Shown: in pieces, positions 15,122-49,488 of the stretch
Layout of the letters: each line of letters begins with the position of its first letter
Position numbering within the stretch: position 1 is the first letter of the stretch
NCBI GenBank assembly: GCA_964431555.1
Contig: CAYSJW010000018.1
Coordinates: 1-49,488, forward strand
Source of the DNA: an uncultured Gammaproteobacteria bacterium
Lineage (GTDB): Bacteria > Patescibacteriota > Microgenomatia > UBA8517
Length of the DNA: 49,488 nucleotides
Direction of reading: 5' to 3'
Position numbers and translations under genes: made by a program
Notes under the pieces: generated by a model
Told to the model about the DNA's origin: nothing
Seen by the model: only the letters and a program-made list of their open reading frames with translations
The model's database searches: none

Positions 15122-15832
15122 ATGGTGAAGGTAATAAAAGAGATATCCGTTTTTTTTCCGACTTACAATGAAGAAAAAAATATCAGAAAGGTTGTATCTG
15201 ATGCAAAGAAAGTTTTAGAGGAGATTTCTCAAAGATGGGAGATAATAATTGTTGAAGATGGTTCAAAGGACAAAACTCCTCAGATAGTTGACCAAATAGC
15301 GAAAAAAGATAGAAGAATAAGGGTAATTCATCATAGACCCAATCGCGGTTATGGGGGTGCTTTGAAAACTGGCTTTTCCAACGCCAAATATGAATGGGTA
15401 GCTTTTTCTGACTCTGACGGGCAGTTTGACTTTTCGGAAATTACAAAATTTATTAGTAAACAAAAAGAAACAGGTGCAGATCTTATTTTAGGAATAAGGA
15501 GGCAAAGAGCTGATCCTTTTATTCGTAAAGTTTTTACCTTTTTTTGGTCAAAACTTTTGCCAAGGATTTTGTTGGGTCTTAAGGTTAAGGATTATTCTTG
15601 CGGCTTCAAAATGATCAGAAGGAAGGTATACCAAAGTGTACAGCCTTTGGTGGGCGAAGAGAAGGTTACACAGATTGAGATGCTAACTAAAGCGAAACGA
15701 TTTGGTTTTGAATTTGCGGAAGTTGAGGTAAGTCACTATCCAAGAAAGTTTGGGAAACAAACTGGCGCTGATTTAAAAGTGGTTTTTCGCAGCATTCGAG
15801 ACCTTTTGAAACTTTGGTGGCAGTTGAAATGA
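15122..15832 (+). CDS. GT2, Dpm1/GtrB/ArnC-like polyprenyl-phosphate sugar synthase
   Basis: 236 aa. Motifs VFFPTYNEEKNI, VEDGSKDKT, SDSDGQFD (DXD) and GIRR. The stop overlaps the ATG of the next GT-C gene. Confidence 0.8.
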   Translation: MVKVIKEISVFFPTYNEEKNIRKVVSDAKKVLEEISQRWEIIIVEDGSKDKTPQIVDQIAKKDRRIRVIHHRPNRGYGGALKTGFSNAKYEWVAFSDSDGQFDFSEITKFISKQKETGADLILGIRRQRADPFIRKVFTFFWSKLLPRILLGLKVKDYSCGFKMIRRKVYQSVQPLVGEEKVTQIEMLTKAKRFGFEFAEVEVSHYPRKFGKQTGADLKVVFRSIRDLLKLWWQLK

Positions 15833-17433
15833 AGAGAAAATTTAGGGTTTACCATTTACAACTTAGAAAATGGTTTAAAAAAAATCGTTGGGAGGCAATC
15901 TTTTTATTTGCGATACTTTTAATCGCAGCCTTTCTAAGACTTTATAGGATAGATGAATATATGACTTTTTTGGGGGATGAGGGAAGAGATGCGATTGTTG
16001 TCAGAAGACTCCTTGTAAATTTCGATCCGATTTTGATAGGTCCAGGGACATCAATTGGTAATATGTATTTGGGGCCTTTGTATTATTATCTTATTGCACC
16101 GAGTTTGTTTTTGGCAAATTTTTCACCGGTTGGACCGTCGATTTTTGTGGCTTTTCTAGGGATTTTTACTTGTTTTTTAGTTTGGTGGGTAAGTCGGGAT
16201 TGGTTTGGTAAGGGGGCAGCTTTTGTAGCCGTTACTTTATATTCTATTTCACCGGTTGTAATTGCCTATTCACGCTCATCTTGGAATCCAAATATAATGC
16301 CTTTTTTTGCATTACTATGCATTTATTCGGTATGGAAGATCTGGTTAATTCCGACAAAAAGTACCAATAGTTTAAGGAAGGAAAATTTGTTTTGGCAAAT
16401 TGTGCTTGCAGTTTCTTACGCGTTTGTTCTTCAATCACATTATTTGGGTTTGCTTCTTGCTCCTGTACTTGTCTTATTTTGGTTTTTGGGTTTTAAAAGG
16501 GTATTTAAATTGACAAGAGGAGATGAATTAATTAAAAAGAATTTCATTAAAAGTTCAGTATTAGGCTTTGGCATTTTTTTATTTCTTATGTCTCCTTTGC
16601 TGATTTTTGATGCCCGTCATGGTTGGAATAATTTTTCGGCGATAAAGACCTTTTTCACGGTGAGGCAGACAACCGTTTCGGCACGTCCTTGGAGTGCTAT
16701 TCCCAAATTAATACCTTTAACTCAGAAGATTTCAACAAGACTGATTACTGCTACTAATGAAAAATACGGAAAGTGGTTAAATACAATTTTATGGGCAGGA
16801 TTTATATGGGTTATTTTAAGATTGAGAGAATTTGGATTGAAGGGCAAAAAAAAACGGGCTTTTTTAATTTTATTAGCCTGGATGGGTTTTGCACTATTGG
16901 GCTTGGGTGTTTATAAACAGGAAATTTATGATCATTACTATGGTTTTTTTTCACCTGGTCTATTTATCTTTTTGGGAGGAGTGTTTCAGGTATTTCTGGA
17001 GGAAAGAAAATTTAGCTTTTTTCATGTTTTGATTGGTTTTTTTGTATTTTTTTTGGTATATCTGGATATTCAAAATAATCCCTTGAAATATCCTCCCAAT
17101 CGCCAGATGCAAAGGGCTCGGGAAGTTGCCAACTTGATAGCTGAAAAGGCGGGAAATTCAAGATTTAATTTAGCGGTTATTGCGGAGAGGAATTATGAGG
17201 ATGGATATCAGTATTTTTTGGAAAAAAATGGCAAAAAGGTTTTGGATATAAATCCTCTTAATTTGGAAAAAACTCTAGCTGATATTTTATTTGTCGTTTG
17301 TGAGTTGCCGAAAGAAAAATGTGATCCTACTCATAGTCCTAAAGCGGAAATTGCCAATTTTGGTTGGAGTAAGATTGATGGTGAATGGGATATTTCAGGA
17401 GTAACGGTCTATAAACTTGTGCATGTTGAGTGA
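15829..17433 (+). CDS. GT-C-like polytopic membrane glycosyltransferase, paralog family 1 (D-x-G-R-D / YYYLIAP type)
   Basis: After TM1 the sequence reads LRLYRIDEYMTFLGDEGRDAIVVRRL...IGPGTSIGNMYLGPLYYYLIAP. There are many TM helices and a C-terminal soluble domain (~120 aa). I place the start at ATG 15829 (ATGA overlap) rather than TTG 15814. Confidence 0.65.
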   Translation: MKRKFRVYHLQLRKWFKKNRWEAIFLFAILLIAAFLRLYRIDEYMTFLGDEGRDAIVVRRLLVNFDPILIGPGTSIGNMYLGPLYYYLIAPSLFLANFSPVGPSIFVAFLGIFTCFLVWWVSRDWFGKGAAFVAVTLYSISPVVIAYSRSSWNPNIMPFFALLCIYSVWKIWLIPTKSTNSLRKENLFWQIVLAVSYAFVLQSHYLGLLLAPVLVLFWFLGFKRVFKLTRGDELIKKNFIKSSVLGFGIFLFLMSPLLIFDARHGWNNFSAIKTFFTVRQTTVSARPWSAIPKLIPLTQKISTRLITATNEKYGKWLNTILWAGFIWVILRLREFGLKGKKKRAFLILLAWMGFALLGLGVYKQEIYDHYYGFFSPGLFIFLGGVFQVFLEERKFSFFHVLIGFFVFFLVYLDIQNNPLKYPPNRQMQRAREVANLIAEKAGNSRFNLAVIAERNYEDGYQYFLEKNGKKVLDINPLNLEKTLADILFVVCELPKEKCDPTHSPKAEIANFGWSKIDGEWDISGVTVYKLVHVE

Positions 17434-17522
17434 GTGGTGGTTCTAAGTCTTTTTGCTTTACTGTTTCAGCGCAATAAAGCAAGACATTATGGTATTTTCT
17501 TATGGTTTTTTAGAAAAAATAT

Positions 17523-18461: not shown

Positions 18462-18493
18462 GTGTTTATATCTGTTAATTTCAGTACCGAACC

Positions 18494-18522
18494 TTGCATG
18501 TATCATATTGTAATATTAAAAT
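18494..18522 (+). promoter_or_regulatory. Promoter-like element upstream of nrnA
   Basis: TTGCAT (18494-18499), a 17-nt spacer, then TAAAAT (18517-18522). AT-rich DNA produces such matches by chance. Confidence 0.3.
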
Positions 18523-18562
18523 GGAAGGCTTGAGATGAATTTCTAAATTGAAAATTTCTAAA

Positions 18563-18630
18563 TTCAAACCGAAAGGTTTGAACGTAATCAACCCGTCGGG
18601 TTGAATAGGTTTGAACCTTTCGGGTTTTTG
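18563..18630. repeat. Imperfect palindromic repeat element, copy A (intergenic, ends 5 nt before the nrnA ATG)
   Basis: A perfect local hairpin ttcaaacc-gaaa-ggtttgaa spans 18563-18582. The central palindrome aacccgtcgggtt spans 18590-18602. The right arm ggtttgaacctttcgggt spans 18608-18625 and is followed by tttttg. Left and right arms are largely reverse-complementary around the centre at 18595-18597. By manual count, 45 of 51 positions are identical to 24584-24634, with identical internal spacing. Confidence 0.75.
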
Positions 18631-18635
18631 TAAAA

Positions 18636-19640
18636 ATGAACTACAATTACAAGGAAGCTAAAAAAATACTAAAAATAATTAAAAAATCAGAAAGTATTTT
18701 GCTTAATTGTCATCGAGGTCCTGATCCTGATTCAATCGGAAGTACATTGGCACTTTTTAATGTTTTAAGAAATATGGGTAAAAAGGTAGATGTAGTTTGT
18801 CCAAGTAAGGAGCTTTATGAGGGAGTAGAATTTTTGGATAATTATGATTTGATTAAGAGAAATGTTAATTTTTTTGATTTTGATTTTAAAAATTATGATT
18901 TATTTATAATTTTGGATTCATCCAGTTGGGATATGGTAACAAGTGACATAAAAGCACCTCGTCCTTCAATACCATCAATAGTTGTTGATCACCATTATAC
19001 AAATTCAAGATATGGTGATATTAATATTGTTGATGAAAAAGCTTCCTCAACAGGAGAAATTATCTTTAGATTGTTTGAAGATTGGCGGATTAAAATTGAT
19101 TTAAATACGGCCAATGCCCTTTTAACAGCGATAATTAGCGACACTGGTCTTTTCAGGTATCCTAATCAGACTGAAAAGACTTATTCTGCCTTTTTAAAAC
19201 TTTTAGAAATGGGCGCCGATAAGGATTTGATAGTGTCTCGTTTATACAGGAACAATGATATTAAATTGCTTAAATTTTGGGGCGAGGTTTTGACTAGGCT
19301 TAAGGTTGACAAGGAGAATAAATTTGTCTACTCTGCTATTCCTTATGAAATTTATCGTAAGTTTGGTAAACTTCGAAATGCAAAAGATTCTTCTTGTGAT
19401 CTTTTTGCACAATCAACAAGTGAAACTGATTTTGGCTTCTTTGTTATTGAGGAAGAGAAAAATGAAATATCAGTGAGTTTTAGATCAAGAAATTATTTTG
19501 ATACGTCAAGAATAGCTTTGGAATTGGGAGGAGGAGGTCATAAAGCGGCATCGGGTGCTAAAATTCACGGAAAATCATTTAAAAGTGCTTTAAATCTCAT
19601 TTTAAATGTGGCTAGAAAGTATACGAAAATTTCCCAATGA
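18636..19640 (+). CDS. nrnA: DHH/DHHA1 phosphoesterase, NrnA-like oligoribonuclease / pAp phosphatase
   Basis: 334 aa. Motifs HRGPDPDSIGS, ILDSS, VVDHH, ISDTGLFRY and a C-terminal GGGGH. Confidence 0.85.
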   Translation: MNYNYKEAKKILKIIKKSESILLNCHRGPDPDSIGSTLALFNVLRNMGKKVDVVCPSKELYEGVEFLDNYDLIKRNVNFFDFDFKNYDLFIILDSSSWDMVTSDIKAPRPSIPSIVVDHHYTNSRYGDINIVDEKASSTGEIIFRLFEDWRIKIDLNTANALLTAIISDTGLFRYPNQTEKTYSAFLKLLEMGADKDLIVSRLYRNNDIKLLKFWGEVLTRLKVDKENKFVYSAIPYEIYRKFGKLRNAKDSSCDLFAQSTSETDFGFFVIEEEKNEISVSFRSRNYFDTSRIALELGGGGHKAASGAKIHGKSFKSALNLILNVARKYTKISQ

Positions 19641-19702
19641 GCTTCTTTATTAAAAAATATCAAAAGCCTAATCTTATTTAGTTAGAAAAATATTTAGACT
19701 TT

Positions 19703-21247
19703 ATGAAAATTATAAAAAAATTTAAGAATTTGCTATTTAAAAGTATAAGACGTTATAAATTTACTTATGCGGTTCTAGCGTTAATATTATCTTTTAGTTT
19801 TTTTCTAAGAATTTATAGAATTTCAGAACTTTTAGGTTTTTATTATGATCAGGGAAGAGACGCTTTAGTTATTTGGAGGTTTTGGCACGAAGGAAAGCCT
19901 TTTTTAGTTGGGCCTGTTACAGGATTGGAAGGAATTTTTTTAGGACCTTTTTATTATTACCTGATTGCCCCCTTTTATTTGATAGGTGGTGGAAATCCTA
20001 TTTATCCAGCCATATTTTTGGCTTTTTTGTCGGTGATAGCAATAGGTGTTGTCTTTTATTTGGGATGGCGGATGCAAAGCTTATTTACAGGTTTGATAGC
20101 AGCTATAATTTCTGGTTTTTCTTATTACTTTGTTCAGGCAGGTCGTTGGCTTGCAAACCCAACGCCGATTTTATTGACCAGCGTTTTACTCCTTCTTTCT
20201 ATGTGGAAGATAATTGAGGATAAAACTGAAAAAAGTGAGACCTTCTGGTTTTCTGTAGCAATTTTGGTTGGAATTTCACTTCAGCTTGAGGCAGCAAGTG
20301 CTATATTTTACATTCCTATGGTGATTATTTTTATTGTCTATCTAGTTTTGCTTAGAAAAAAATTGTTTTCTTTCAAAACTTTTATATTCTCGACACTAAT
20401 TCTTTTGCTTACCCTGCTTCCGCAAATTATTTTCAATTTTAGACACGAGAATATACTTCTGGATAATTTTAGTAAAGTGATATTTGAAGAGAAAAGTTTT
20501 AAAAACCCTTTTACTTCTTATAATTTAATAAAAAAAAGAGATTATTTCTGGAATGTTTTTAGTTCTAAAATTTTTCCAAGAGAAATAAAATACTCTGGCG
20601 TTTATTATCTACTTGGATTATTGGGTATATTTTTGACACTTAAAAAAAATTCGAAGGCAATAATTATTTTGTCAATTTTTATCGGTATTCCTTTGATTGG
20701 TTATATCTTTTTTCAAGGAAATTACGGCAATATTTATGACTATTATATGACAGGTTATTATCTACCTGCGGTTTTGCTTTTTTCGATTGGGCTAGGATAC
20801 TTTTGGAAAAATTTATTAGGTAAGATTTTAGTTTTGCTTTTTTTAGTTGTATTTTTGAATGTAAACATACCACTCATTAAGAATTATATTTCTGCCGGAA
20901 CAGATGGTCCGACTCACATAACTTTGGGTAATGAACTCGATGCTGTGAATTGGGTTTTTGACGACGCGTCTGAATTGGATAAATTTAATATAGATGTATA
21001 TGTTCCTCCGGTGATTCCTCATTCCTACGAATATCTATTTTTATGGCAGGGGAATGTGCGTTGTGGGAAAAGTCTTTGTAACTGGGAAAAAAACAAGCAG
21101 GAGAATGTAGTTTATGTATTATTTGAAATTGATCCACCTCATCCTGAAAGATTGGAAAACTGGCTTTCAAGATATGAGGAAAATAGTATTCTGGAAAAGG
21201 AAGTGAAATTTGGCGGGGTTACTGTTCAGAGAAGATTGAGAATATGA
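19703..21247 (+). CDS. GT-C-like polytopic membrane glycosyltransferase, paralog family 1
   Basis: LRIYRISELLGFYYDQGRDALVIWRF...VGPVTGLEGIFLGPFYYYLIAP aligns by eye with 15829..17433. It has 12 or more hydrophobic helices and a C-terminal soluble domain. Confidence 0.65.
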   Translation: MKIIKKFKNLLFKSIRRYKFTYAVLALILSFSFFLRIYRISELLGFYYDQGRDALVIWRFWHEGKPFLVGPVTGLEGIFLGPFYYYLIAPFYLIGGGNPIYPAIFLAFLSVIAIGVVFYLGWRMQSLFTGLIAAIISGFSYYFVQAGRWLANPTPILLTSVLLLLSMWKIIEDKTEKSETFWFSVAILVGISLQLEAASAIFYIPMVIIFIVYLVLLRKKLFSFKTFIFSTLILLLTLLPQIIFNFRHENILLDNFSKVIFEEKSFKNPFTSYNLIKKRDYFWNVFSSKIFPREIKYSGVYYLLGLLGIFLTLKKNSKAIIILSIFIGIPLIGYIFFQGNYGNIYDYYMTGYYLPAVLLFSIGLGYFWKNLLGKILVLLFLVVFLNVNIPLIKNYISAGTDGPTHITLGNELDAVNWVFDDASELDKFNIDVYVPPVIPHSYEYLFLWQGNVRCGKSLCNWEKNKQENVVYVLFEIDPPHPERLENWLSRYEENSILEKEVKFGGVTVQRRLRI

Positions 21248-22728
21248 CGAAATTTTTGACTAAATTTGTCTTTATCTTTACAATTATCTTGATTATTTTT
21301 GTCAGTTTTTATTTAAGAATTTTTGACGCTGAAAGGCTTTTGTCCTATAGCCACGATTATGATTTGGCTGGATGGATTGTTAAAGATATTGTTTTCGACA
21401 AACACTTTCGCCTAATTGGTCAGGAGACTTCAACCCAAGGTATATTTATAGGTGGGCTTTATTATTATTTACAAATTCCTTTTTATCTTATGTTTAATAT
21501 GGATCCATATGGGGTTGTGTTTTTGGCTTCACTTTTGGGGGTTTTTACTACGATATCCTATTTTTATGTTTTTAATAAAATATTTAACAAATTTATTGCA
21601 TTGGTGGCTTCTTTGATTCATGCGGTTTCTTTGTTTATTGTTTTTACTGAAAGAGAGGTGGTCCCTACTGCACCTGTTTTTTTATGGTCGGTTTGGTTTT
21701 TGTATACTGTTCATCTTTTTTTGATAAATGAACAGTTAAAGGCATTTATTTTGTCTGCTGTCCTTGGCGCTTTGATTTGGCATATTAATTTTGCCCTAAT
21801 TTTGCCTTTTTCATTGTTATTTATTGTTTTGTTTTTCTTTATAAAGAAAGTAAATATTAAATTTCTACTGCTGGGACTTTTGTTTTTTATTGTATTAAAC
21901 ACACCTTTGATCGTTTTTGAGATTCGTCATAATTTTATTCAAACAAAAGCTTTAATAACTTCTCTCACCACCAACCAGATGGATGTTTATCATGGCATAG
22001 GTAAATTTATCAGAGTATTTCATTTGATGGGAAAAAATTTGAACGACCTTGTTTTTGGAGGTGCAACAAATATCAAATACGATTTGTTTTCTCTAATTCC
22101 TTTGGTGGTTCTTTTGATGATGATATACAGGAAAGTTATTAGGAGAGATTTAGGAATTATTTTTTTATCCTGGATTTTATTATATGTAGCTTTTTTTTCG
22201 ACATATTCAAAAATTGTATCAGAATATTATCTAAATGGCGTTATTGTTGTTTATATAGCTGTGATTTCAATCTTGGTTGGCAATTTATTGGAAAGAAGAA
22301 AGACTCGAATTATTGGAATTATTTTTCTTATTGTTTTTTGCTATTTTAATTATAAAAATCTTGTTAATTATCCATTTAATAGGAGTGGATATTATGAGAG
22401 GAAAAATTTAGTTAAAGAAATACGCAGGAATGCGATTATGAACGGTTATCCTTGTGTTTCGGTTTCTTATATTACCAAACCTGGTTATAATTTGGGCTAT
22501 AGATACCTTTTTTGGTGGTTAGGAATGCATGTTAACAGACCTGAAAGTAATTCTCCTGTTTACACAATAGTTTTTCCGTTAAGAGATGATATTAAAGTTG
22601 ACAAGACTTTCGGGTCGCTTGGTCTTATTTATCCTGATTATTCGCGTTATACTAAAGAAGAAGTAACTGAAAGTTGTTCGGGAGAAAATTCAAATTTGAC
22701 AGATCCCATGTTTGGATTTACTAAGTAA
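21244..22728 (+). CDS. GT-C-like polytopic membrane glycosyltransferase, paralog family 1 (divergent copy)
   Basis: ATGA overlap with the previous gene. LRIFDAERLLSYSHDYDLAGWIVKDI...IGQETSTQGIFIGGLYYYLQIP has the same architecture, with GRD replaced by YDLAG. Confidence 0.6.
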   Translation: MTKFLTKFVFIFTIILIIFVSFYLRIFDAERLLSYSHDYDLAGWIVKDIVFDKHFRLIGQETSTQGIFIGGLYYYLQIPFYLMFNMDPYGVVFLASLLGVFTTISYFYVFNKIFNKFIALVASLIHAVSLFIVFTEREVVPTAPVFLWSVWFLYTVHLFLINEQLKAFILSAVLGALIWHINFALILPFSLLFIVLFFFIKKVNIKFLLLGLLFFIVLNTPLIVFEIRHNFIQTKALITSLTTNQMDVYHGIGKFIRVFHLMGKNLNDLVFGGATNIKYDLFSLIPLVVLLMMIYRKVIRRDLGIIFLSWILLYVAFFSTYSKIVSEYYLNGVIVVYIAVISILVGNLLERRKTRIIGIIFLIVFCYFNYKNLVNYPFNRSGYYERKNLVKEIRRNAIMNGYPCVSVSYITKPGYNLGYRYLFWWLGMHVNRPESNSPVYTIVFPLRDDIKVDKTFGSLGLIYPDYSRYTKEEVTESCSGENSNLTDPMFGFTK

Positions 22729-22740
22729 GATTATTTTAGA

Positions 22741-23511: not shown

Positions 23512-23512
23512 G

Positions 23513-25159: not shown

Positions 25160-25210
25160 AGAATAATACTTCTAGACTTTCTTTGTGATATTATCAATAA
25201 ATGATTATCA

Positions 25211-37800: not shown

Positions 37801-37810
37801 TATTTTATCT

Positions 37811-38740: not shown

Positions 38741-38793
38741 TTAAATTTAAATAGATTAAATGAAAAATAATTTAATATGAAGTTTATTTTTTT

Positions 38794-39567: not shown

Positions 39568-39639
39568 TTCAGGAATAGAAATCCCAAAAAGTTACCAGTT
39601 GGAAAAGTGAGACATTTTCTAAAATATTTTTAATTTAAT

Positions 39640-40662: not shown

Positions 40663-43066
40663 GTTAAATTTCTTGAAATTCTGGCCTTTTGTTTTTATTT
40701 TTTTTATTTCCATATTATTTTTCTACCCTTTACTGCTGAAAAATAGAGTTCCTCTTCCCTTGGATGCATTGGTTGGGGCACATCTTCCTTGGACTGAAGT
40801 TTTATGGGAAGGATATCCTGTGGGAGTGCCAATTAAGAATTTGGAGATAACCGATTCTATTTCTCAGTTTTATCCTTGGAGAAGTTTAGTTGGGAGGTTT
40901 TGGAGAGAAGGTCAATTTCCGCTTTGGAATAAATATATGCTTTGTGGAGTTCCTTTTTTGGCAACCCTTCATTCAGCTGGTTTATATCCTTTAAATTTTT
41001 TGTATCTTATATTAAATGATATTGATGCATGGTCTCTTTTGATTTTTCTTCAAATATTTCTTTCGGGAATCTTTATGTTTTTATTCCTTTTGGAACTTGG
41101 TATTGACAGGTTATCTTCTTTGTTTGGAGCTATTGTTTTTTCCTTTTCTGGTTACATGATAGCTTGGTTGGAATTTGCAACTGGAGGGCATGCGGGTTTA
41201 TGGCTTCCCTTAATTTTGATGTTAGAGCTTAAATTTGTATTGAGAGGCGAAAGAAAGTATTATCTTTTCATTCCATTTATTTTTTTCTTTATATACACAG
41301 CTGGAGATTTTCAAATACCTTTATACATAACTTTGGTTTATTTTTTATTTGGTATATATTTGATTTTTAAAAATAAGAATCTCAAAAATAAAATAGTTTT
41401 ATTTGTAAAAGTATTTTTCAGTTGGGTTTTGGGGGTCTTGTTATCATTATTACAGCTTCTTCCCACCTTTGAACTTTTCAAAAATTCGGTAAGACTTAAT
41501 GACCCTTATGTTAAAGAATACTTTTACGGTTTAATGAGTTGGGAAAAGATTACCAATTTTTTATGGCCGGATTTTTATGGTAATGTTGTTACTGGGAATT
41601 ATTGGGGAAAATATAGTTTTCATGAATATCTAGCGTTTACAGGAATAGTATCGATTGGGTTTTTAATTTATTCTTTTATTTCTAAAAAGAATTTTTTAGA
41701 GAAGTTTTTTTGGTTTATATTTATAGTTTCTTTATTATTTCTTTTTCCTACTCCTTTAGCTTTTTTGCCATATAGATATAATTTGCCAGGCATTGGAACC
41801 AGCTTTGCGAGTAGAATTATTTTTTTGGTTGATTTTTCAGTTGCGGTTATCTCTTCTTATGGTTTATCTAAGTGGGTTAAAAGGCAAGATGGTAAGCTGG
41901 GTAAAGTATTTTTTTATATTTTGGTTATTTCATTCGGAATTGCCTTGGGTTTGATAATTTCTATCTTAATTTTAGAAAAAGGCCCATCTTTAGGTAAGCT
42001 TAGTATTTTGACTAATTTAAAGGTTTCGCTCAAAAACATGGTGCCATCAACTTTAATTTTAATAGCTGGTTTATTTGTTCTTTATTTGGGAAGAATTAAG
42101 TTTTTGAAAGGACATTGGTTGTATTTTAAAGGTATAAGAGTATTAATAATATTGTTACTCGCGATACTTGAACTTCTAAGATTTTCCTGGAAAAATACTC
42201 CTTTTTCCGAGAAAAAATTTCTCTATCCCAAAACCAAAGTAATAGATTTTCTAACTAGTCAAAAGAAACCTTTTCGGATAGCCGGGGCAGGTTTTCCGAT
42301 GAACTATTTTATGCAATATGATATCAGTTCAGTAGAGGGTTATGATCCACTCTATCCTTCAGACAGTGCATTGTGGTTATCCTTGATTAATACTGGTAAA
42401 CCTGAATTGATTACAAGAAGATATGGAGAGGTTTCAAAGTTTGTATCGCCTTTGTTAGATTATACTAACGCTAAATATGTAATAGATTATCGTAAAAATC
42501 CCAAGAATAAAATTCCTGGAATAGAAGGAGTATATGCTGAAGGAATTAATACTGAAAGGTTTAATAAAATACTTGAGGAGGGTAGAGTTGGTATCTTTGA
42601 AAATAAAACGGTTTTACCAAAAGTATGGTTAACCACTAAATATTATATAGCCAAAGATAAGGATGATTTATTTAAAAAGGTTAATGATCTTAAGTTTTCG
42701 GAGAAAAAAATAGTACTTGAAAGGAGTATCAATTTACAGATTTTTGAAAAGGATTTAAATTATGAAATATCAGATTACAATGAAGGGTTTAATAAGATTT
42801 CTTTTGTTACTAAGTCGACTAATGATGCCTTGCTTTTTTTGTCGGAATCATATAACCCCGGATGGAAGGCATATGTTGATGGAATAAGAACTGATATTTT
42901 AAGAGCTAACTATATTTTTCAGACAATATTTTTGCCAAAAGGAGAACATAATGTTGAGTTTATTTATTATCCAGAATCGTTTAAGATAGGTAAAAAGGTT
43001 TCATTATTAAGCTTTGTGCTAATTGTTGTGCTTTTAACCTATGAAAATAAAAAAAGATATCACTAA
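40601..43066 (+). CDS. YfhO-family polytopic membrane glycosyltransferase (GT-C)
   Basis: 821 aa. N-terminal FFYPLLLKNRVPLPLDAL...ITDSISQFYPW, about 14 TM helices, and the typical C-terminal SESYNPGWKAYVDG....RANYIFQTIFLPKGEHNVEFIYYP with a final TM. The start is uncertain (40601, 40619 or 40625); all options overlap the GT4 gene. Confidence 0.8.
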   Translation: MKVPRFMNMKDLRRKFCRLFKLNFLKFWPFVFIFFISILFFYPLLLKNRVPLPLDALVGAHLPWTEVLWEGYPVGVPIKNLEITDSISQFYPWRSLVGRFWREGQFPLWNKYMLCGVPFLATLHSAGLYPLNFLYLILNDIDAWSLLIFLQIFLSGIFMFLFLLELGIDRLSSLFGAIVFSFSGYMIAWLEFATGGHAGLWLPLILMLELKFVLRGERKYYLFIPFIFFFIYTAGDFQIPLYITLVYFLFGIYLIFKNKNLKNKIVLFVKVFFSWVLGVLLSLLQLLPTFELFKNSVRLNDPYVKEYFYGLMSWEKITNFLWPDFYGNVVTGNYWGKYSFHEYLAFTGIVSIGFLIYSFISKKNFLEKFFWFIFIVSLLFLFPTPLAFLPYRYNLPGIGTSFASRIIFLVDFSVAVISSYGLSKWVKRQDGKLGKVFFYILVISFGIALGLIISILILEKGPSLGKLSILTNLKVSLKNMVPSTLILIAGLFVLYLGRIKFLKGHWLYFKGIRVLIILLLAILELLRFSWKNTPFSEKKFLYPKTKVIDFLTSQKKPFRIAGAGFPMNYFMQYDISSVEGYDPLYPSDSALWLSLINTGKPELITRRYGEVSKFVSPLLDYTNAKYVIDYRKNPKNKIPGIEGVYAEGINTERFNKILEEGRVGIFENKTVLPKVWLTTKYYIAKDKDDLFKKVNDLKFSEKKIVLERSINLQIFEKDLNYEISDYNEGFNKISFVTKSTNDALLFLSESYNPGWKAYVDGIRTDILRANYIFQTIFLPKGEHNVEFIYYPESFKIGKKVSLLSFVLIVVLLTYENKKRYH

Positions 43067-43964
43067 TTCGGATTGGGTCTCATTAATAATTCCAAATTTT
43101 AACGGGGAAAAATTACTTGAAGAGAATCTTTCATTTGTGTTTGAGGCTTTTGCTAACAAAGAAAATAAAATACTAGAGATTATTATTGTAGATGATGCTT
43201 CAAATGATGGAAGTGTTAATTTTATTAAAAGAAATTATCCCGATATAAGGTTAATTAAACATAAACTTAATCGCGGCTTTCCAGCAGCGGTCAATACTGG
43301 TGTAAGAATGGCTAAAGGTGATTATATAGCTCTTCTTAACACTGATGTTAAGCCGAGTAGAAATTTTTTAGTGGATTCGTTGGTTCATTTTAAAAATGAA
43401 AAAGTTTTTGCTGTTTCTTTTCATGAAAAAGGTTATGGCTGGGCTAGGGGGTATTTTGAAGATGGCTTTATAAATCATGAGCAAGGCAAAGAAAGTAAAA
43501 GCGTCCATGAAACATTTTGGGTGAGCGGAGGAAGTGGAATTTTTAGAAGAAGTATGTGGCTAAAATTGGGAGGAATGGATGAGAAACTTTTTACTCCCTT
43601 TTATTGGGAAGATATTGATATATCTTATCGTGCAGCAAAAAGGGGTTGGCTTTTGTTGTGGGAACCTAATTCAAAAGTAATTCATGAACATGAGTCAACC
43701 ATGAAAAAAATTTCAATTAACTATAGAAAAAGAATTCAGGAAAGAAACCAATTAATCTTTATTTGGAAAAATATAACCTCTCCTCAACTTTTAAAAAGAC
43801 ATTTTGCTGGTTTAATTAAGAGAATTTCTCGTCACCCAGGCTATCTAAGGATAGTTTTTTTGGCATTAAAGAAAATAAGAATTGTTATTAAAGCCAGGAG
43901 AAAGGAAATCAAAGAGGGTAAGATATCGGATGAAGCGATTTTTGCAAAATTTAAAAATGATTGA
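43041..43964 (+). CDS. GT2 family glycosyltransferase (WbbL-like)
   Basis: SLIIPNFNGEKLL, VDDASNDGS, GFPAAVNTG, LLNTDV and YWEDIDISYRAAKRGW. Confidence 0.85.
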   Translation: MKIKKDITNSDWVSLIIPNFNGEKLLEENLSFVFEAFANKENKILEIIIVDDASNDGSVNFIKRNYPDIRLIKHKLNRGFPAAVNTGVRMAKGDYIALLNTDVKPSRNFLVDSLVHFKNEKVFAVSFHEKGYGWARGYFEDGFINHEQGKESKSVHETFWVSGGSGIFRRSMWLKLGGMDEKLFTPFYWEDIDISYRAAKRGWLLLWEPNSKVIHEHESTMKKISINYRKRIQERNQLIFIWKNITSPQLLKRHFAGLIKRISRHPGYLRIVFLALKKIRIVIKARRKEIKEGKISDEAIFAKFKND

Positions 43965-44793
43965 TATTTCTATAATTATAGTAAGTTTTAATACTAAAAA
44001 TTTAACGGTTCAATGTATTAAATCTGTATTTAAAGAAGGAAGTAAGTTGGAAAAGGAAATTATTGTTGTTGATAACGGTTCAGTTGATGATAGCGTAAAA
44101 GAGATTGAAAAGCTGAAAATTAAAAACAGAAAATTAGGATCTAAGATAAAGATTATTGTTAATTCCGAAAATCTTGGTTTCTCAAAGGCAAATAATATAG
44201 GTATCAAAGAAGCGAAGGGAAAGTATATATTGCTTCTTAATTCAGATACAGTGGTAAAAAAAGGGTCAATTGAAGCTCTTTTGGAATTTGCTAGAAAGAA
44301 AAAAGATGCAGGAGCAGTTGTTCCCAAACTTATTAATCCAGATGGGACTACACAGGCATCTGTCTTTCGATTACCCAATATAAAACGCGCTATTGAACAG
44401 TATTGGTTAGGGAAAGAAAAGCTTCTTGATAAATATTATCCGGAAGGAAACACTCCTTCTATCGTCGAATCTGCCGTTATGGCTGCTTTTCTTATTACCC
44501 CCAAAACATTAAAAATGGTAGGTTTGTTAGACGAGCGTTATTTTATATATTTTGAGGATCTTGATTATAGTAGAAGAATTCAAGAAAAGGGTTTGAAGAT
44601 CTATTATCTCCCAAGTGCAGAGGTAATTCATTATCACGGTGCAAGTGGAAAAAATTTAATTGATGAAAGAAACCAGTGGAGAAGACTAATTCCTTCGAGT
44701 AAAATTTATCACGGAACCTTAAGACATTATTTGTTTAACTTTATATTATGGTCAGGTCAAAAGTGGAGAAACTTTTTCAAAAATCAAAATTAG
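43957..44793 (+). CDS. GT2 family glycosyltransferase (WbbL-like)
   Basis: ISIIIVSFNTKNLTVQCIKS, VDNGSVDDS, GFSKANNIG, LLNSDT and YFEDLDYSRRIQEKG. I prefer the ATG at 43957 (ATGATTGA overlap) over the upstream 43882. Confidence 0.85.
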   Translation: MIDISIIIVSFNTKNLTVQCIKSVFKEGSKLEKEIIVVDNGSVDDSVKEIEKLKIKNRKLGSKIKIIVNSENLGFSKANNIGIKEAKGKYILLLNSDTVVKKGSIEALLEFARKKKDAGAVVPKLINPDGTTQASVFRLPNIKRAIEQYWLGKEKLLDKYYPEGNTPSIVESAVMAAFLITPKTLKMVGLLDERYFIYFEDLDYSRRIQEKGLKIYYLPSAEVIHYHGASGKNLIDERNQWRRLIPSSKIYHGTLRHYLFNFILWSGQKWRNFFKNQN

Positions 44794-46520
44794 CTTTAAT
44801 TGTCATACTTATTTTATCCTCCTTTCTAAGACTTTGGAGGATTTCGGATGTACCTGTTTCTCTTTTTGGTGATGAACTCGATGTGGGTTATCATTCTTAC
44901 TCGATTTTAAAAACGGGAAAAGATTATCAAGGAAATTTCATGCCTCTTCATTTTCATTCTATTGCAGAATGGAGAACTCCATTATATCTGTACTTTGCAG
45001 TACCAACAGTAGCTTTATTTGGAATAACTCCTCTTGGAGTTCGTTTACCTGCGGCTATTTTTGGAATTATAGGAGTTTGGGGAATATATTTATTAACTAA
45101 AGAAATTTTAAAAATTTCCAATTTTGATAAATTATCAAGTTTTAAAGGTTTAAAACTGGGGGTTCTTACTAGTTTTTTGTTGGCAATTTCTCCTTGGCAT
45201 ATTCAGTACTCGCGGGCAGCATTTGAAGTAACTCAACTTTTAGCATTTTTAATTTTTGGGCTTTATTTTTTCTTTAAGAGCTTGGAAAAATCTAAATACC
45301 TTTGGGTTTCTGTGACTTTTTTTACTTTTACTCCATGGATATATAGCACTGCAAAACTTTTTGCTCCGCTTTTTATAACTTTTCTTTTTTTAATTTGGAA
45401 AAATCAAATACTAAAAATGTCAAGGTTTGAAATTGGAAAGGCTGTCTTAGCAGGTGTATTAGTAGGTTTTCCAATTTATTATAGTACTTTTTTTGGACAA
45501 GGAGCGCAAAGAGCGGTTTATACAAGTATTTTTACTGACCCGACTGTTGAGCCAGAGATTGGTGTTGCCAGGATGGTAGATAACATAATGAGGGGAGATA
45601 TGATCGTAGGATACAAACCAAGCTTGTGGGATAGAATTTTTCACAATAAAGTGGTTTTCTGGGTGGATGGAATTGTAAAAAATTATCTTCAAAGCCTCTC
45701 TTTTTCTTTTCTTTTCGAAGATGGTGATCCAAATTTGCGTCACTCTATAAAAGGAATGGGTCAGTTTTACAAAGTGGAAGTAATTGGTTTTGTTTTGGGA
45801 GTTTTCTTTTTCTTTAGTTCAAAGATAGATAGAAAGTTAAAATATTTATTTGCATTTTGGATATTGGCTGGAATTTTGCCTGCTGCTTTAACCCGTGATG
45901 GTGGTAATCATGCAACCCGACTTATCATTATACTTCCGCCTTTAATATTTTTGATTTCTTATGGAATTGTCGAAACTGCAACTAGATTAAAAAATAAGTT
46001 GGGGTTAATTTTTCTTGCTTCTTTCTTCTTACTTCTTACTACCAATTTTATCTTTTACCAGCATATATACTGGATACATAATCCTTGGGATAGCGAACGC
46101 TGGTGGCATGCTGGTTTTAAAGATTTGATTCAATCAATTAAAGAGCTGGAAAAAGATTATGATAAGGTAGTTATTTCTATGGCAGGAGAACCAGCTTGGA
46201 TCTTTTTTGCAGGTTGGTATCAGTATCCTCCGGATAAGTGGCAAAAAAATTTTCCAATAGGTAATGATGTAGAGCTAAAGGGATTTGGCAAGGTTTCTCA
46301 TATAGAAAATTATTATTTTGGAAATTTTAATGTTCCTGGAGAAAGCCTTTATGATCTCCCCAAATATATTGACCGGAGAACTTTGTATTTAAGTGTTGCA
46401 AAAGAAATCTCCGTAAATTTACTACGGGAACCTGAAAGGGTACCTCCAGGATTGGAACTTCTGAAATCAATTCCCTATCCTTCGGGGGAACCTGCATTTT
46501 ATATTTTCAAAAAAGAGTAA
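44748..46520 (+). CDS. GT39/PMT_2-like polytopic membrane glycosyltransferase, paralog family 3
   Basis: LRLWRISDVPVSLFGDELDVGYHSYSILKTGKDYQGNFMPLHFHSIAEWRTPLYLYFAVP and ISPWHIQYSR, plus a C-terminal soluble domain. Confidence 0.7.
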   Translation: MVRSKVEKLFQKSKLALIVILILSSFLRLWRISDVPVSLFGDELDVGYHSYSILKTGKDYQGNFMPLHFHSIAEWRTPLYLYFAVPTVALFGITPLGVRLPAAIFGIIGVWGIYLLTKEILKISNFDKLSSFKGLKLGVLTSFLLAISPWHIQYSRAAFEVTQLLAFLIFGLYFFFKSLEKSKYLWVSVTFFTFTPWIYSTAKLFAPLFITFLFLIWKNQILKMSRFEIGKAVLAGVLVGFPIYYSTFFGQGAQRAVYTSIFTDPTVEPEIGVARMVDNIMRGDMIVGYKPSLWDRIFHNKVVFWVDGIVKNYLQSLSFSFLFEDGDPNLRHSIKGMGQFYKVEVIGFVLGVFFFFSSKIDRKLKYLFAFWILAGILPAALTRDGGNHATRLIIILPPLIFLISYGIVETATRLKNKLGLIFLASFFLLLTTNFIFYQHIYWIHNPWDSERWWHAGFKDLIQSIKELEKDYDKVVISMAGEPAWIFFAGWYQYPPDKWQKNFPIGNDVELKGFGKVSHIENYYFGNFNVPGESLYDLPKYIDRRTLYLSVAKEISVNLLREPERVPPGLELLKSIPYPSGEPAFYIFKKE

Positions 46521-47791
46521 TGAAAAAGATCTTTCTGCTTATAATTGTATTATCTTTATTTATACGTTTTCTTTTGGTTCTTTCTGCGTACCATGGAGAT
46601 CTAAACAATAATATTTCTTGGGGAGATCTTTTGCTTGCCAGAGGAACGAATGGTTTTTATGGTTCATCTGATGCAAATGACTGGCCTTATTCTGCACCAA
46701 ATCAGCCACCTTTATATCTTTATATTTTCGCTTTAACCTCATGGATAAATAAAAGTGTTGAAGACGCAGCATTTTGGTTAAATAAGAATTTCAAAGATTT
46801 TCCATCAAGGTTTATTTGGTTTTGGCAGGAAAAAGGAAAAGTTATTGCAGTAAAGCTTCCCGGTATTATTGCAGATATAGGTGTTTCTTATTTAATTTTT
46901 TCTTACCTTAGTAAAAAAGGAAAAATGAAAACTGCCTTAATCATAACCACTTTATGGCTTTTTAATCCTGTTGTTATCTATAACTCAACTGTCTGGGGAC
47001 AAACGGATAGTACTGTAAATTTTTTTGGTTTGGCTTCTGTTTTATCATTGCTTGCTGGAAATTTAGCAGTTGCTACACTTCTTTTCACTCTGGGATTTTT
47101 GTATAAAGGCTCTTTACTAATTTTTATTCCGATAATTTTGGTTTATTGTTTGAAGAAGAAATTTACTTTAAAAGTTTATGTTAAGGCTATAGTTTTGTCA
47201 TTAGGCGTTGTTTTTTTAATTTCTTTCCCGTTTCATCCCTATTTAGATTTTCCTTTGTGGTTTGTGAATCTTTATAAAGAAAGAATTATACCCGGTGAGA
47301 TAGGCTATTTAACAGCAAATGCATTTAATTTTTGGTGGTTGATAAATCCGGGAAAGGTCTTAGATAGTACAAAATATCTTTTTTTTACAGCTAGGGTTTG
47401 GGGAATGTTAATAACCTTTTTTTTGATTGGTTTTATTTCTTTTAGATTTTATAAGAATCCTAAAGAAGAAAAAATTTTTTTCTATTTATCGTTAGTTGCA
47501 TGGCTTTCATTTTTGTTTATGACACGTATGCATGAGCGATATCTTTACCCCTTTTTTCCTTATTCGACCATTTTGGTTGGTTTTTATCCTATTACCATTT
47601 GGGTCTACATTTCCGTGTCTATTGTTCATTTGCTGAATCTTTATCATTTATTTTGGCAGCCTGAAATACCGGTTTTAATTGATTCTTATAACAATGAGTG
47701 GTTTCCGAAAATTTTATCTGTTTTTATTTTGTTTTTATTTTTATCGTACGTATGTTTGGTAAAATTGAGTGAAAAAAGAAAAATGAGTTAG
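46520..47791 (+). CDS. Polytopic membrane protein, DUF2029/GT87- or PIG-V-like GT-C candidate
   Basis: 423 aa with a TAATG junction. The first loop reads YHGDLNNNISWGDLLLARGTNGFYG...WPYSAPNQPPLYLYIF, followed by about 10 hydrophobic helices. Confidence 0.45.
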   Translation: MKKIFLLIIVLSLFIRFLLVLSAYHGDLNNNISWGDLLLARGTNGFYGSSDANDWPYSAPNQPPLYLYIFALTSWINKSVEDAAFWLNKNFKDFPSRFIWFWQEKGKVIAVKLPGIIADIGVSYLIFSYLSKKGKMKTALIITTLWLFNPVVIYNSTVWGQTDSTVNFFGLASVLSLLAGNLAVATLLFTLGFLYKGSLLIFIPIILVYCLKKKFTLKVYVKAIVLSLGVVFLISFPFHPYLDFPLWFVNLYKERIIPGEIGYLTANAFNFWWLINPGKVLDSTKYLFFTARVWGMLITFFLIGFISFRFYKNPKEEKIFFYLSLVAWLSFLFMTRMHERYLYPFFPYSTILVGFYPITIWVYISVSIVHLLNLYHLFWQPEIPVLIDSYNNEWFPKILSVFILFLFLSYVCLVKLSEKRKMS

Positions 47792-47812
47792 GTTTGGAGT
47801 ATAATTTTAAAC

Positions 47813-49488
47813 ATGCGGAAGTGGTTATTGATAGTATTAACTGTTTTAGCAGTATTTCTTCGGGTTTATAATTTGTCATCTTATCCTTCTGGTTTTACCC
47901 CTGATGAAGCGTCTTTTGCCTATGACGCTTTTTCGATATTAAAAACGGGCAAAGATCAGTGGGGAAAGCCTTATCCTTTACTTTTAGAGTCGTTTGGAGA
48001 TTATAAATCTCCTCTTTTGGCATATTTGACAATTCCCTTTGTTTATTTTTATGGCTTGACTAAAGAAGCGGCAAGATTACCAAATGCTCTTTTATCTATC
48101 TTATCTTTAGTTGTTGTTTACTTTCTTGCAGGGGAGATAGCAAGGTTGGGGGGTATGAGAAAGCAAACAGTAAAGTTGTATCAGTTGATTTCCTTTATTT
48201 TTTTAGCTTTTTCTCCTTGGCATATTATGTTAAGTCGAGGTGCTTTCGAAGCAAATCTAACTACCTTTTTTCTACCAGCTGGAATTTTATTTTTTTTAAA
48301 AGGACTTGAAAATGAAAAATTTTTGAATTTGTCTTCTTTGTTTTTTTCTTTAAACTTATTTACATACCATTCAGCAAAAATTGTGACGCCTTTGATCGTC
48401 TTTTTCTTGATTATCCTGTTTTATAAGGATCTTAAAAGTATTAGTTTTAAATATTACTTACTTGCAATATTAATTTTAGGTGCTGGGTTAATTTTAACAA
48501 TACACACTTTTTTTCAAGGTGGAGCTACAAGGGCAAAAGATATCAGTATAGTTAATGGAGCTATAAATGAAGCTGCAAGTGAGAGGTTGTTGTCGATAAA
48601 TGCGGGGGTTCCCTTTTTTTTGGCGAAGCTAGCAAATAACAAATTTACAGTTATTTTAAGAAGATTTTTTGATAATTACACACAATATTTTTCGTTTCAG
48701 TTTCTTTTTTCTGATGGACCTTCTGAGACTACTTATGGCATGATTCCTGGAAGAGGGGTCTTGTATTACTTTGAGATTATTCTTCTTTTCTTTTCCTTAT
48801 ATTCATTATTTATTTTTAAGGATAAAAAACCGATTTATCTACTTTTCTTTTGGCTTTTTATTTCTCCTATCCCAGCAGCGTCGACAATGGGAAAGGGTTT
48901 TGCCGCTAATCGCAGTGCAATAATGATGCCGGCTATACAAATGATTTCATCTATTGGTTTTATTACTCTTTTTGATTTTGTTAAAAGTAATTACCCTAAA
49001 CTTAAAAATGTTTTTTCGGCATTTTTCTTTTCAATATTTTTAGTGTCGTTTGTTTCTTTCCTTAAAGATTATTTTTTAATATCTCCTTTTATTGCTTCTG
49101 AAGGTATGCTTTACGGCAATTTGGAAGCTGCCTATTTACTTAAATCAAAATTTGCAAGTGAAAAAAAGATAGTTGTAAGCAAAAGACTTTCAGAACCCCA
49201 TATTTATATAGCTTTCGCAGAAAAGATAGACCCCAATTTTTACCAGAAGAATTCTCAAAGATGGAATTACCAGGAACAAGGTGTTTTATGGGTTGATCAG
49301 ATGCCTGATTATGAACTTGGGAGATATGTTTTCAAGAATATTGATTGGAACTCGGATAGCGGGAGTAATAATTTGTTGGTAGGAAAACCAGACGAATTTC
49401 CTTCATCAATTGAGCCTTTGGTTAAGATCAATTATCCAAATAGTAAACCTGCGATTTTTATCGTCAAACCAAACATCCAAAAGTATGC
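47813..49488 (+). CDS. GT39/PMT_2-like polytopic membrane glycosyltransferase, paralog family 3; 3'-partial (runs off the window; not in the ORF track)
   Basis: My manual translation from ATG 47813 shows no stop through 49488. It reads MRKWLLIVLTVLAVFLRVYNLSSYPSGFTPDEASFAYDAFSILKTGKDQWGKPYPLLLESFGDYKSPLLAYLTIPF ... FSPWHIMLSRGAFE ... and aligns with 30970c and 44748. Confidence 0.7.
   Translation, partial: MRKWLLIVLTVLAVFLRVYNLSSYPSGFTPDEASFAYDAFSILKTGKDQWGKPYPLLLESFGDYKSPLLAYLTIPFVYFYGLTKEAARLPNALLSILSLVVVYFLAGEIARLGGMRKQTVKLYQLISFIFLAFSPWHIMLSRGAFEANLTTFFLPAGILFFLKGLENEKFLNLSSLFFSLNLFTYHSAKIVTPLIVFFLIILFYKDLKSISFKYYLLAILILGAGLILTIHTFFQGGATRAKDISIVNGAINEAASERLLSINAGVPFFLAKLANNKFTVILRRFFDNYTQYFSFQFLFSDGPSETTYGMIPGRGVLYYFEIILLFFSLYSLFIFKDKKPIYLLFFWLFISPIPAASTMGKGFAANRSAIMMPAIQMISSIGFITLFDFVKSNYPKLKNVFSAFFFSIFLVSFVSFLKDYFLISPFIASEGMLYGNLEAAYLLKSKFASEKKIVVSKRLSEPHIYIAFAEKIDPNFYQKNSQRWNYQEQGVLWVDQMPDYELGRYVFKNIDWNSDSGSNNLLVGKPDEFPSSIEPLVKINYPNSKPAIFIVKPNIQKY

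Follow-up and report, generated by a model that had tools for sequence, protein, structure and literature searches.

The window analysed here is a complete metagenome contig of 49,488 bp (CAYSJW010000018.1; ENA ERZ27245602 k141_70574) with a GC content of about 32%, for which a near-identical contig of the Joint Genome Institute (JGI) is on record, and the named homologues of its proteins belong to Candidatus Woesebacteria and other Microgenomates of the Candidate Phyla Radiation (CPR, Patescibacteria). From left to right it encodes a MacB/HlyD ABC system, a fusion of a family 2 glycosyltransferase (GT2) with a GtrA-like module (GT2-GtrA, 4481), a class IV aminotransferase, a polytopic protein here called H, an F-type ATP synthase operon and a CBS protein, and from position 15122 to the contig end glycosylation genes follow one another in a near-unbroken run. 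This run, in which genes for candidate polytopic glycosyltransferases of the GT-C superfamily (families A to G) are interspersed with genes for soluble GT2 and family 4 (GT4) glycosyltransferases and for a Wzx-type flippase, is, together with the GT2-GtrA fusion and H, the subject of this study (Table 1). GT-C candidates take up 21.9 kb of the 34.4 kb between 15122 and 49488, and the source genome is likely to be about 1 Mb or less in size.

An earlier interpretation of this DNA (the sequence-only reading) had described thirteen polytopic open reading frames (ORFs) in the run, most with an acidic motif in the first loop after the first transmembrane (TM) segment, and close junctions with upstream GT2 genes, and all of these features were confirmed in the sequence. 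The 13 ORFs encode proteins of 423-821 aa in which a crude hydropathy scan detects 7-12 hydrophobic segments each, and the acidic motifs of A1, A2, A3, D, B1, B2, B3, C1, C2 and C3 are all located in the first loop after TM1. When orthologues were aligned, an invariant aspartate was found in loop 1 of every family, the invariant residues being D51 and E52 in D, D55, E56 and D59 in A1, D41 in B, D43 in G, D35 in C (where D52 and R92 are invariant as well), D55 in E, D27 in F, and N49 and D51 in H. An ATGA overlap joins s1 to A1, A2 to A3 and B1 to B2, the s2/D junction reads TAAGATG, and a 40-bp gap lies ahead of B1. With respect to the topology of loop 1, K/R-rich N-terminal tails are present in A1, A2, B3, E and G. 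Soluble end domains of about 100-150 aa had also been described for most of these proteins; a soluble segment of 120-270 aa does follow the last core TM in 12 of 14 candidates, and F and H have none. In B1, B2, B3 and E one further TM segment follows the C-terminal soluble segment. The Wzx flippase and x6 (32628c), which are hydrophobic too, are not GT-C candidates and lay outside the earlier count.

Table 1. Genes and features of the 49,488-bp window, with coordinates on the contig and the matches that characterise them.
Feature	Coordinates	Strand	Description	Match or remark
MacB/HlyD ABC system	1420-4431	+		
GT2-GtrA fusion	4481..5635	+		Pfam Glycos_transf_2 78 bits, GtrA_DPMS_TM 54.5 bits
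Class IV aminotransferase				
H	6799..7956	-	385-aa polytopic protein	PMT_2 25.1 bits (gathering score 26.1)
F-type ATP synthase operon	8734-14400	+		
CBS protein				
s1	15122..15832	+	Short soluble GT2	Glycos_transf_2 127.6 bits
A1	15829..17433	+	GT-C, PMT_2 type; GDEGRD; 120-aa C-terminal domain	PMT_2 22.6 bits, sub-threshold
312-aa soluble ORF	17523-18461	+		
DHH/DHHA1 phosphoesterase	18636..19640	+	NrnA-like	Pfam DHH 63 bits, DHHA1 36 bits; NCBIfam NrnA E 1.9e-28
A2	19703..21247	+	GT-C, PMT_2 type; YDQGRD	PMT_2 27.5 bits, above gathering score
A3	21244..22728	+	GT-C, PMT_2 type; HDYD	PMT_2 24.6 bits, sub-threshold
s2	22741..23511	+	Short soluble GT2	Glycos_transf_2 103 bits
D	23513..25159	+	GT-C, PMT/PMT_2 type; FGDEAIY; 150-aa C-terminal domain	PMT_2 52.6 bits, PMT 31.3 bits; longest possible ORF begins at 23480
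s3	25211..25936	+	Short soluble GT2, DPMS/PgfS-like	Glycos_transf_2 134.8 bits
B1	25977..27635	+	GT-C, PTPS_related/YfhO type; MHDDMQ	PTPS_related 25.2 bits, sub-threshold
B2	27632..29296	+	GT-C, PTPS_related/YfhO type; MHDDLQ	PTPS_related 29.5 bits
B3	29274..30989 (alternative start 29286)	+	GT-C, PTPS_related/YfhO type; PHDLHH	PTPS_related 59.4 bits
C1	30970..32631	-	GT-C, PMT_2 type; LDEAGQ	PMT_2 46.9 bits
x6	32628..33455	-	275 aa, about 7 TM, without family	4-bp overlap with C1, same direction
Wzx	33695..35179	+	Wzx-type MOP flippase	Polysacc_synt_3 179 bits
G	35139..36878 (gene-caller start 35166)	+	Unannotated GT-C family; GFWGPNGHDG	Fold match only
t1, t2, t3 and GT4	36898..40662	+	Soluble GT2 (t1-t3) and GT4	Pfam GT2 46, 81.5 and 65.6 bits; Glycos_transf_1 89.9 bits
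E	40601..43066	+	821-aa YfhO-type GT-C	YfhO 60.3 bits, residues 731-800 only
t4 and t5	43041..44793	+	Soluble GT2	GT2 80.6 and 99 bits
C2	44748..46520	+	GT-C, PMT_2 type; GDELDV	PMT_2 25.8 bits, sub-threshold
F	46520..47791	+	423-aa GT-C, PIG-M/ALG-like	Alg6_Alg8 21.4 bits, sub-threshold
C3	47813..49488	+	GT-C, PMT_2 type; TPDEAS	PMT_2 16.6 bits, weak; without stop, ORF cut by contig end

The identity of the polytopic proteins was examined by Pfam, NCBIfam and PDB profile searches, by hhalign and BLASTP and, for G and B3, members of the two families that were least supported by sequence, by AlphaFold2 (AF2) modelling and Foldseek. Profile matches directly account for 11 of the 13 ORFs, and A2, D, B2, B3, C1 and E reached or exceeded the Pfam gathering score. 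All-versus-all BLASTP sorted the proteins into group A (A1-A3, identity 24-27%; A2 with A1 E 2e-20, A3 with A1 E 7e-17, A3 with A2 E 6e-15), group B (B1-B3, identity 31-40%; B1 with B2 40%, E 2e-118, both of them tied to B3 by homology), group C (C1-C3, identity about 30%; C2 with C1 E 3e-54, C3 with C1 E 1e-61, C3 with C2 E 2e-61) and the singletons D, E, F, G and H. The profile of A1 orthologues aligns with that of D over the full length (hhalign probability 98%, E 1.6e-13), and A1 itself has a weak match to AglB (E 0.019). D exceeds the gathering score of Pfam PMT (22.7 bits) in a profile region that is common to ArnT-type enzymes, and it has a weak match to ArnT (E 0.0059); the F family profile finds GPI mannosyltransferase I (PIG-M) in PDB with E 4e-14. 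The B proteins match PTPS_related and some B3 orthologues have precomputed PF09586 matches; the YfhO match of E is limited to profile positions 764-834 and is accompanied by NCBIfam matches to PgfM2 (E 1.2e-8) and PgfM1 (E 1e-6), and B3 and E share 30% identity at their C-termini. PTPS_related and YfhO are both families that we take to belong to the Pfam GT-C clan. PDB profile searches with the B and H families returned nothing useful, and hhalign of B with D gave a weak result (20% probability). For B3 an AF2 model was obtained with a predicted local distance difference test score (pLDDT) of 89.8 and a predicted TM-score (pTM) of 0.90, and its best 25 Foldseek matches in PDB are all GT-C enzymes (STT3, AftA, Pmt4, AglB, PglB, EmbB, ArnT and AftD; TMq 0.36-0.45). 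In this model the C-terminus forms a beta-sandwich followed by a TM anchor.

Could these ORFs instead encode transporters or other membrane proteins which match GT-C profiles through their hydrophobic composition? Many of the Pfam scores lie at or just under the gathering thresholds, and B, G and H are without a sequence match in PDB, both of which speak for such an explanation. However, in the fold searches with the G and B3 models transporter folds received probabilities of at most 0.15 and GT-C enzymes 0.97-1.00, the polar or acidic residues of loop 1 are invariant in each family, and the genes are steadily adjacent to GT2 donor-synthase genes, which makes this explanation extremely improbable. 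A transporter identity was therefore rejected, the fold probability being negligible for G and B3 and no ORF being assigned to a transporter fold. On profile or predicted-fold evidence, all 13 of the 13 polytopic ORFs can be placed in the GT-C superfamily, as the sequence-only reading had proposed. Public records already label some of the cluster proteins as ArnT-like glycosyltransferases, and the components of the cluster add new members to superfamilies that are already known.

Family G and its neighbour Wzx were analysed separately. Wzx matches Polysacc_synt_3 over residues 50-330 and the NCBIfam MOP flippase model over residues 18-489 (E 6e-36), followed by TuaB and then by an O-glycosylation flippase. 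For G, no sequence match was obtained in Pfam, NCBIfam, the PDB profile search or hhalign against D, and its AF2 model (pLDDT 83.5, pTM 0.86) was found by Foldseek to be closest to STT3 from yeast and human oligosaccharyltransferase complexes (E 1.5e-8, TMq 0.56), then to AglB, PglB, DPY19, AftA, ALG12 and Pmt4. According to this model, G is a predicted GT-C protein with an oligosaccharyltransferase-like fold. Neither G nor 44 aligned homologues contain a WWDxG motif (there is no WWD in them), nor is there a Pfam STT3 match, and the resemblance to STT3, PglB and AglB is one of fold only. An identity as Wzy or WaaL was rejected: no Wzy_C or O-antigen-ligase profile matches G, and no WaaL-, Wzy- or SEDS-type structure occurs among its 50 best Foldseek matches. 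In relatives Wzx precedes G in 41 of 48 cases and G precedes t1 in 30 of 40, and one protein of 1639 aa (P0399) is a Wzx-G fusion. The G profile collects 1551 representative proteins; among those examined, the only Pfam matches are to fused Wzx domains, and named members of the family carry the label 'hypothetical'. In many homologues of G (P0361, P0365, P0380 and others), which are 1000-1160 aa long, TM1 of the G module is preceded by a signal anchor, then by about 400 soluble residues that belong to no family, a TM segment and a K/R-rich linker. This arrangement lends indirect support to an outward-facing loop 1 in G, and the N-terminal soluble domain has a weak match to DUF3863 and PDB 3lm3. 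Downstream of G, the products of t1-t3 and GT4 contain no TM segment.

The three short GT2 genes which the sequence-only reading had seen upstream of GT-C genes are real (236-256 aa, Pfam Glycos_transf_2 103-135 bits), and the proposed connection to Dpm1/GtrB-like donor synthases is borne out by their closest relatives, which are ArnC, GtrB and DPMS. The best PDB match of s1 is ArnC (E 1.4e-20, residues 5-218), followed by GtrB (1e-14) and DPMS (2e-12); s3 is closest to DPMS (E 1.6e-22, residues 5-231), with chondroitin synthase second and ArnC and GtrB at about 1e-16, and its best NCBIfam match is PgfS with 96 bits. The s2 protein is less distinctive, ArnC being its second-best NCBIfam match. 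None of s1, s2, s3 and 4481 reaches any NCBIfam equivalog cutoff, all of them being missed by a wide margin. No TM or hydrophobic segment was detected in s1-s3, which are thus without the C-terminal membrane anchor of ArnC and GtrB (2 TM) or of PfDPMS (4 TM); as soluble catalytic subunits of the Dpm1/Ppm1 type exist, the absent anchor does not exclude a function as polyprenyl-phosphate sugar synthase. It is likely from these profile matches that s1-s3 are polyprenyl-phosphate sugar synthases, and the GT2-GtrA protein, whose GtrA-like module is the only one within the window, is a candidate for a fourth. Among relatives the gene ahead of D is a short GT2 in 69 of 77 cases and the gene ahead of A1 in 50 of 65, and for H it is GT2-GtrA in 33 of 37. 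From this adjacency to ArnC/GtrB/DPMS-like GT2 genes, we infer that the GT-C enzymes use polyprenyl-phosphate sugar donors.

In order to compare the cluster with related genomes, an alignment of the D family was scanned against one genome per GTDB species, which gave at least 561 loci, and the best 80, from Woese-, Ames-, Blackburn-, Shapiro- and Daviesbacteria and unnamed Patescibacteria, were compared. ORFs were called for each locus and searched with the window proteins, and gene density was determined from the 47 loci whose flanks reached the full 10 kb in both directions. Around the D orthologue, the number of GT-C-like ORFs per 21.5 kb has a median of 7 and a mean of 6.96 (range 2-10), at least 8 are present in 34% of the 47 loci, and the equivalent slice of the window contains 8; on the complete 615-kb chromosome L059, 7 such ORFs lie within 21 kb. 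Each paralogue has its own group of orthologues, matched at 400-800 bits, which indicates that the paralogues are ancient and fixed. Best-hit counts are 72 for A1, 64 for A2, 40 for A3, 84 for D, 56 for B1, 43 for B2, 19 for B3, 50 for G and 54 for H, D being the most widely conserved member. A recent tandem duplication was rejected as the origin of the paralogues, whose identities are only 24-40%.

Gene order is common to Woese-, Ames-, Davies-, Shapiro- and Blackburnbacteria and reads, in its upstream part, GT2-GtrA, H(-), s1, A1, (DHH), A2, (A3), s2, D, (s3, B1, B2, B3) and, in its downstream part, (F), Wzx, G, t1, t2, t3, GT4, (E), t4, t5. The arrangement C2-F-C3 at the 3' end of the window is repeated, exactly or with similar genes, on two long contigs. 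The C2 orthologue of L085 scores 835 bits, and on a 920-kb contig the cluster is laid out alike, downstream of the ATP synthase operon. In the genome studied here this operon splits GT2-GtrA and H from s1-A1, parts which are contiguous in most relatives; the ATP synthase lies directly upstream of s1 in L003, L008, L055 and L056 as well. Because GT2-GtrA and H abut s1-A1 in most relatives, H, which the sequence-only reading had listed as a fourteenth candidate, belongs to the cluster. Its GT-C nature is probable rather than certain: the PMT_2 score in Table 1 is sub-threshold, a PMT_2 match is found in 9 of 28 orthologues, and the NCBIfam model AZOBR_p60025 ('cell surface glycopolymer formation protein') is matched with E 2e-15, below its cutoff, suggesting that H is probably a divergent GT-C without a C-terminal domain.

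The sequence-only reading had interpreted the cluster as a hyper-expanded, combinatorial glycosylation system that may relate to surface variation or host attachment. What speaks for such a system as a lineage-specific expansion, at a density unusual among relatives, is that the modules vary, B being present in 1-4 copies while only 8 of the 80 loci have C, 5 have E and 8 have F, and that the s3-B1-B2-B3 cassette is found in a subset only and is inverted in L017. Against this, the 8 GT-C genes of the window slice fall within the spread of the clade, the paralogues are too dissimilar to be young and have 1:1 orthologues in many species, and gene order is conserved; furthermore, no repeats, invertible elements or phase-variation features were seen in passing, no dedicated search having been made. 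An expansion of this kind is therefore very improbable. The GT-C density is the norm in the Microgenomates clade and not peculiar to this genome, which the sequence-only reading itself had named as an outcome that would speak against its interpretation. The claim of an extraordinary investment for a small genome holds in that the investment is large and the density high against bacteria in general, whereas it is a trait of the clade.

We favour, with a probability that we place slightly above even, a reading of the locus as the Microgenomates version of a fixed two-tier assembly line for an envelope glycan and not as a variable arsenal, a reading that builds on what the analysis demonstrates, namely gene content, assignments to families or folds, invariant residues and synteny conserved in the clade, and within which we infer the donors, the sugars, the topology, the order of the steps and the acceptor. 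In a first tier, suggested by homology and synteny, GT4 and the GT2 enzymes encoded at 36898-40662 and 43041-44793 would build an oligosaccharide on polyprenyl-diphosphate at the inner face of the membrane, Wzx would flip the lipid-linked oligosaccharide, and G would transfer or polymerise the flipped product on the outer face. In a second tier, s1, s2, s3 and GT2-GtrA would make lipid-linked monosaccharide donors for the GT-C enzymes encoded beside them: s1 for A1, behind which A2 and A3 are encoded, s2 for D, s3 for B1-B3 and GT2-GtrA for H. A, B, D and H together with C1-C3, E and F would each form a single type of linkage on the outer side by means of the invariant loop-1 aspartate, and the C-terminal soluble domains would hold the acceptor; in B3 this domain is a predicted beta-sandwich that weakly resembles a carbohydrate-binding module (CBM). 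The acceptor would most likely be a wall- or lipid-anchored heteropolysaccharide, and some members may glycosylate proteins. As orthology is 1:1, the product would be a fixed one, with room for lineage-specific decoration where B, C, E and F vary in copy number.

Precedents for such a division of labour are known. In the biosynthesis of mycobacterial lipomannan (LM) and lipoarabinomannan (LAM), GT-A/B enzymes that draw on nucleotide sugars give way to GT-C enzymes that draw on polyprenyl-phosphate sugars (PMC2157549; PMC3123699), and the LM/LAM and arabinogalactan pathways of Corynebacterineae (Ppm1; MptA/B/C/D, PimE, EmbA-C and AftA-D) have the same two tiers and one linkage per GT-C enzyme. 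The C-terminal domain of EmbC is a lectin-like carbohydrate-binding module (PMC3044687) to which the C-terminal domains of the window proteins can be likened, and the structures matched by B3 and G include AftA, EmbB and AftD. However, the mycobacterial genes are scattered over a genome of about 4 Mb whereas 13-14 GT-C genes of the window lie in one co-directional cluster of a much smaller genome; there is no orthology at the sequence level, no Pfam match to Emb/Aft-type arabinosyltransferases or GT87, and the window includes a Wzx step. The three-component Und-P-sugar systems GtrA/GtrB/Gtr*, ArnC/ArnT and CsbB/GtcA/YfhO follow the same logic of a GT2 synthase and an outer-face GT-C enzyme, and E and orthologues of B match YfhO. 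They differ in that s1-s3 are without the C-terminal TM helices of ArnC and GtrB, that a GtrA-like module is present only as a fusion, and that the window chains four synthase/GT-C pairs in one cluster. The Wzx-dependent en-bloc pathways for Pgl N-glycosylation (PglB) and O-antigen (Wzx/Wzy/WaaL) place GT2, GT4, Wzx and a polytopic enzyme of GT-C fold side by side in the same manner, whereas G is without WWDxG and without an STT3, Wzy_C or O-antigen-ligase match, and an initiating transferase was not found in the window.

Several observations weigh against the assembly-line reading. The Pfam matches of A1, A3, B1, C2, C3, F and H, though consistent with GT-C, are below the gathering scores, and hhalign connects H with D with a probability of only 25%. 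The beta-sandwich of B3 resembles carbohydrate-binding modules only weakly (Foldseek E 0.1-0.6), and whole-protein K/R tallies, based on the crude hydropathy TM calls, are opposite or tied for D, B1, C1, C2, C3 and G. Within the window there is no initiating phosphoglycosyltransferase, no Wzy- or WaaL-type protein, no LCP ligase and no stand-alone GtrA flippase. The acceptor could, moreover, be a protein, since D, E and B resemble the protein glycosylators Pmt, PgfM1/2 and PgtC2.

A system devoted mainly to protein glycosylation has to be weighed in this context, in which D would act as a Pmt-like O-mannosyltransferase, E and B1-B3 would modify Ser/Thr-rich extracytoplasmic regions like PgfM1 and PgtC2, and G, as an oligosaccharyltransferase, would attach the glycan flipped by Wzx as a whole to proteins of the surface such as S-layer proteins or pilins. 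The PMT score of D above the gathering score, the PgfM2/PgfM1 match at the C-terminus of E, the PgfS match of s3, the protein oligosaccharyltransferases STT3, AglB and PglB as nearest structures of G, and the O-glycosylation flippase match of Wzx are all in line with it. Pairing of a GT-A and a GT-C enzyme through an undecaprenyl-phosphate (Und-P) sugar is known for both protein and polysaccharide acceptors (PMC12041528), and streptococcal YfhO-type GT-C enzymes together with GtrB or PgfS glycosylate proteins (PMC12041528; PMC5856776). The streptococcal Pgf (PgfS-PgfM1-PgfE-PgfM2) and GtrB-PgtC2 systems thus have the same logic of a GT-A synthase and a YfhO-type GT-C; the match of E covers only about 80 C-terminal residues, however, the matches are far below family cutoffs, and the window has no epimerase or adhesin genes. 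Likewise, G has neither the WWDxG motif in the 44 members examined nor an STT3 Pfam match, and Pfam PMT and PMT_2 also span lipid- and glycan-directed enzymes such as ArnT, to which D has its weak match. The number of 14 GT-C enzymes far exceeds any known bacterial protein-glycosylation system, Streptococcus pyogenes being reported with two GT-C enzymes (PMC12041528), the CBM-like beta-sandwich of B3 weakly favours a glycan acceptor, and none of the genes in the window is a candidate for an acceptor protein. On balance a mainly protein-directed system is unlikely, although protein glycosylation is an alternative to be taken seriously and may be an additional role.

CPR bacteria are abundant and mostly uncultured, and the cultivated ones live attached to other microbes, which suggests that their surface chemistry probably matters greatly to their biology. 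With the cluster, a concrete set of genes that can be tested is available for the envelope glycan in these organisms, with targets for cultivation work and for labelling by lectins or metabolic precursors and with several compact GT2 and GT-C pairs for biochemistry; this particular genome is not made exceptional by the analysis. A preprint on the pili of Saccharibacteria calls glycosylation in that group 'unexplored' (bioRxiv 10.1101/2024.11.25.624915). In the literature searched no published account of the locus was found, which is weak evidence of absence given the limited coverage of that search, and the organisation in a single locus, its conservation in Microgenomates whose genomes measure roughly 0.6-1.1 Mb, and family G appear to be undescribed. 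Extending the assembly-line reading, we propose tentatively, and with more doubt than confidence, that Microgenomates, perhaps Patescibacteria more widely, build a complex LAM-like envelope heteroglycan through a dedicated single-locus pathway, that G, as its central enzyme, founds a new Wzx-coupled GT-C family which has an oligosaccharyltransferase-like fold without the hallmarks of STT3, and that this glycan is a main determinant of the surface of these ultra-small cells and of host attachment. If true, this would account for the retention of 10-14 GT-C genes in genomes of only about 0.6-1.1 Mb.

Some further observations were made in the related genomes and in the remainder of the window. 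The records of L008, L009, L017, L054, L060, L081 and others bear GTDB titles such as 'uncultured Gammaproteobacteria', 'Clostridia', 'Alphaproteobacteria' or 'Bathyarchaeia' while their gene content and order are those of Microgenomates, and these metagenome-assembled genomes (MAGs) are probably mislabelled. Three MAGs have two contigs each with a D orthologue and cluster genes (L012/L026, L050/L053 and L060/L064), which could represent a second copy of the locus or a mixture of strains in the bin. A promoter and terminator scan of 14800-34700 gave no excess over shuffles (87 sites versus 79 expected, and 12 versus 12). At the left end of the window, the genes at 1420-4431 encode a HlyD-like membrane-fusion protein, an ABC ATPase and a MacB-type permease, which are parts of a tripartite efflux-type system; CPR bacteria are expected to be without an outer membrane. 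Searches of Pfam and NCBIfam with x6 gave no match; the x6-C1 gene pair is also present in L017, and x6 could serve as an accessory subunit in the membrane or as a flippase. The NrnA-like DHH/DHHA1 gene separates A1 from A2 in 34 of the 80 related loci as well. The soluble 312-aa ORF, which belongs to no family, occurs in this contig and its near-identical copies only (0 of 80 related loci), and its C-terminus, GILSHPAILMREAGLKV, presumably recalls the mobile domain of phosphoenolpyruvate (PEP)-utilising enzymes.

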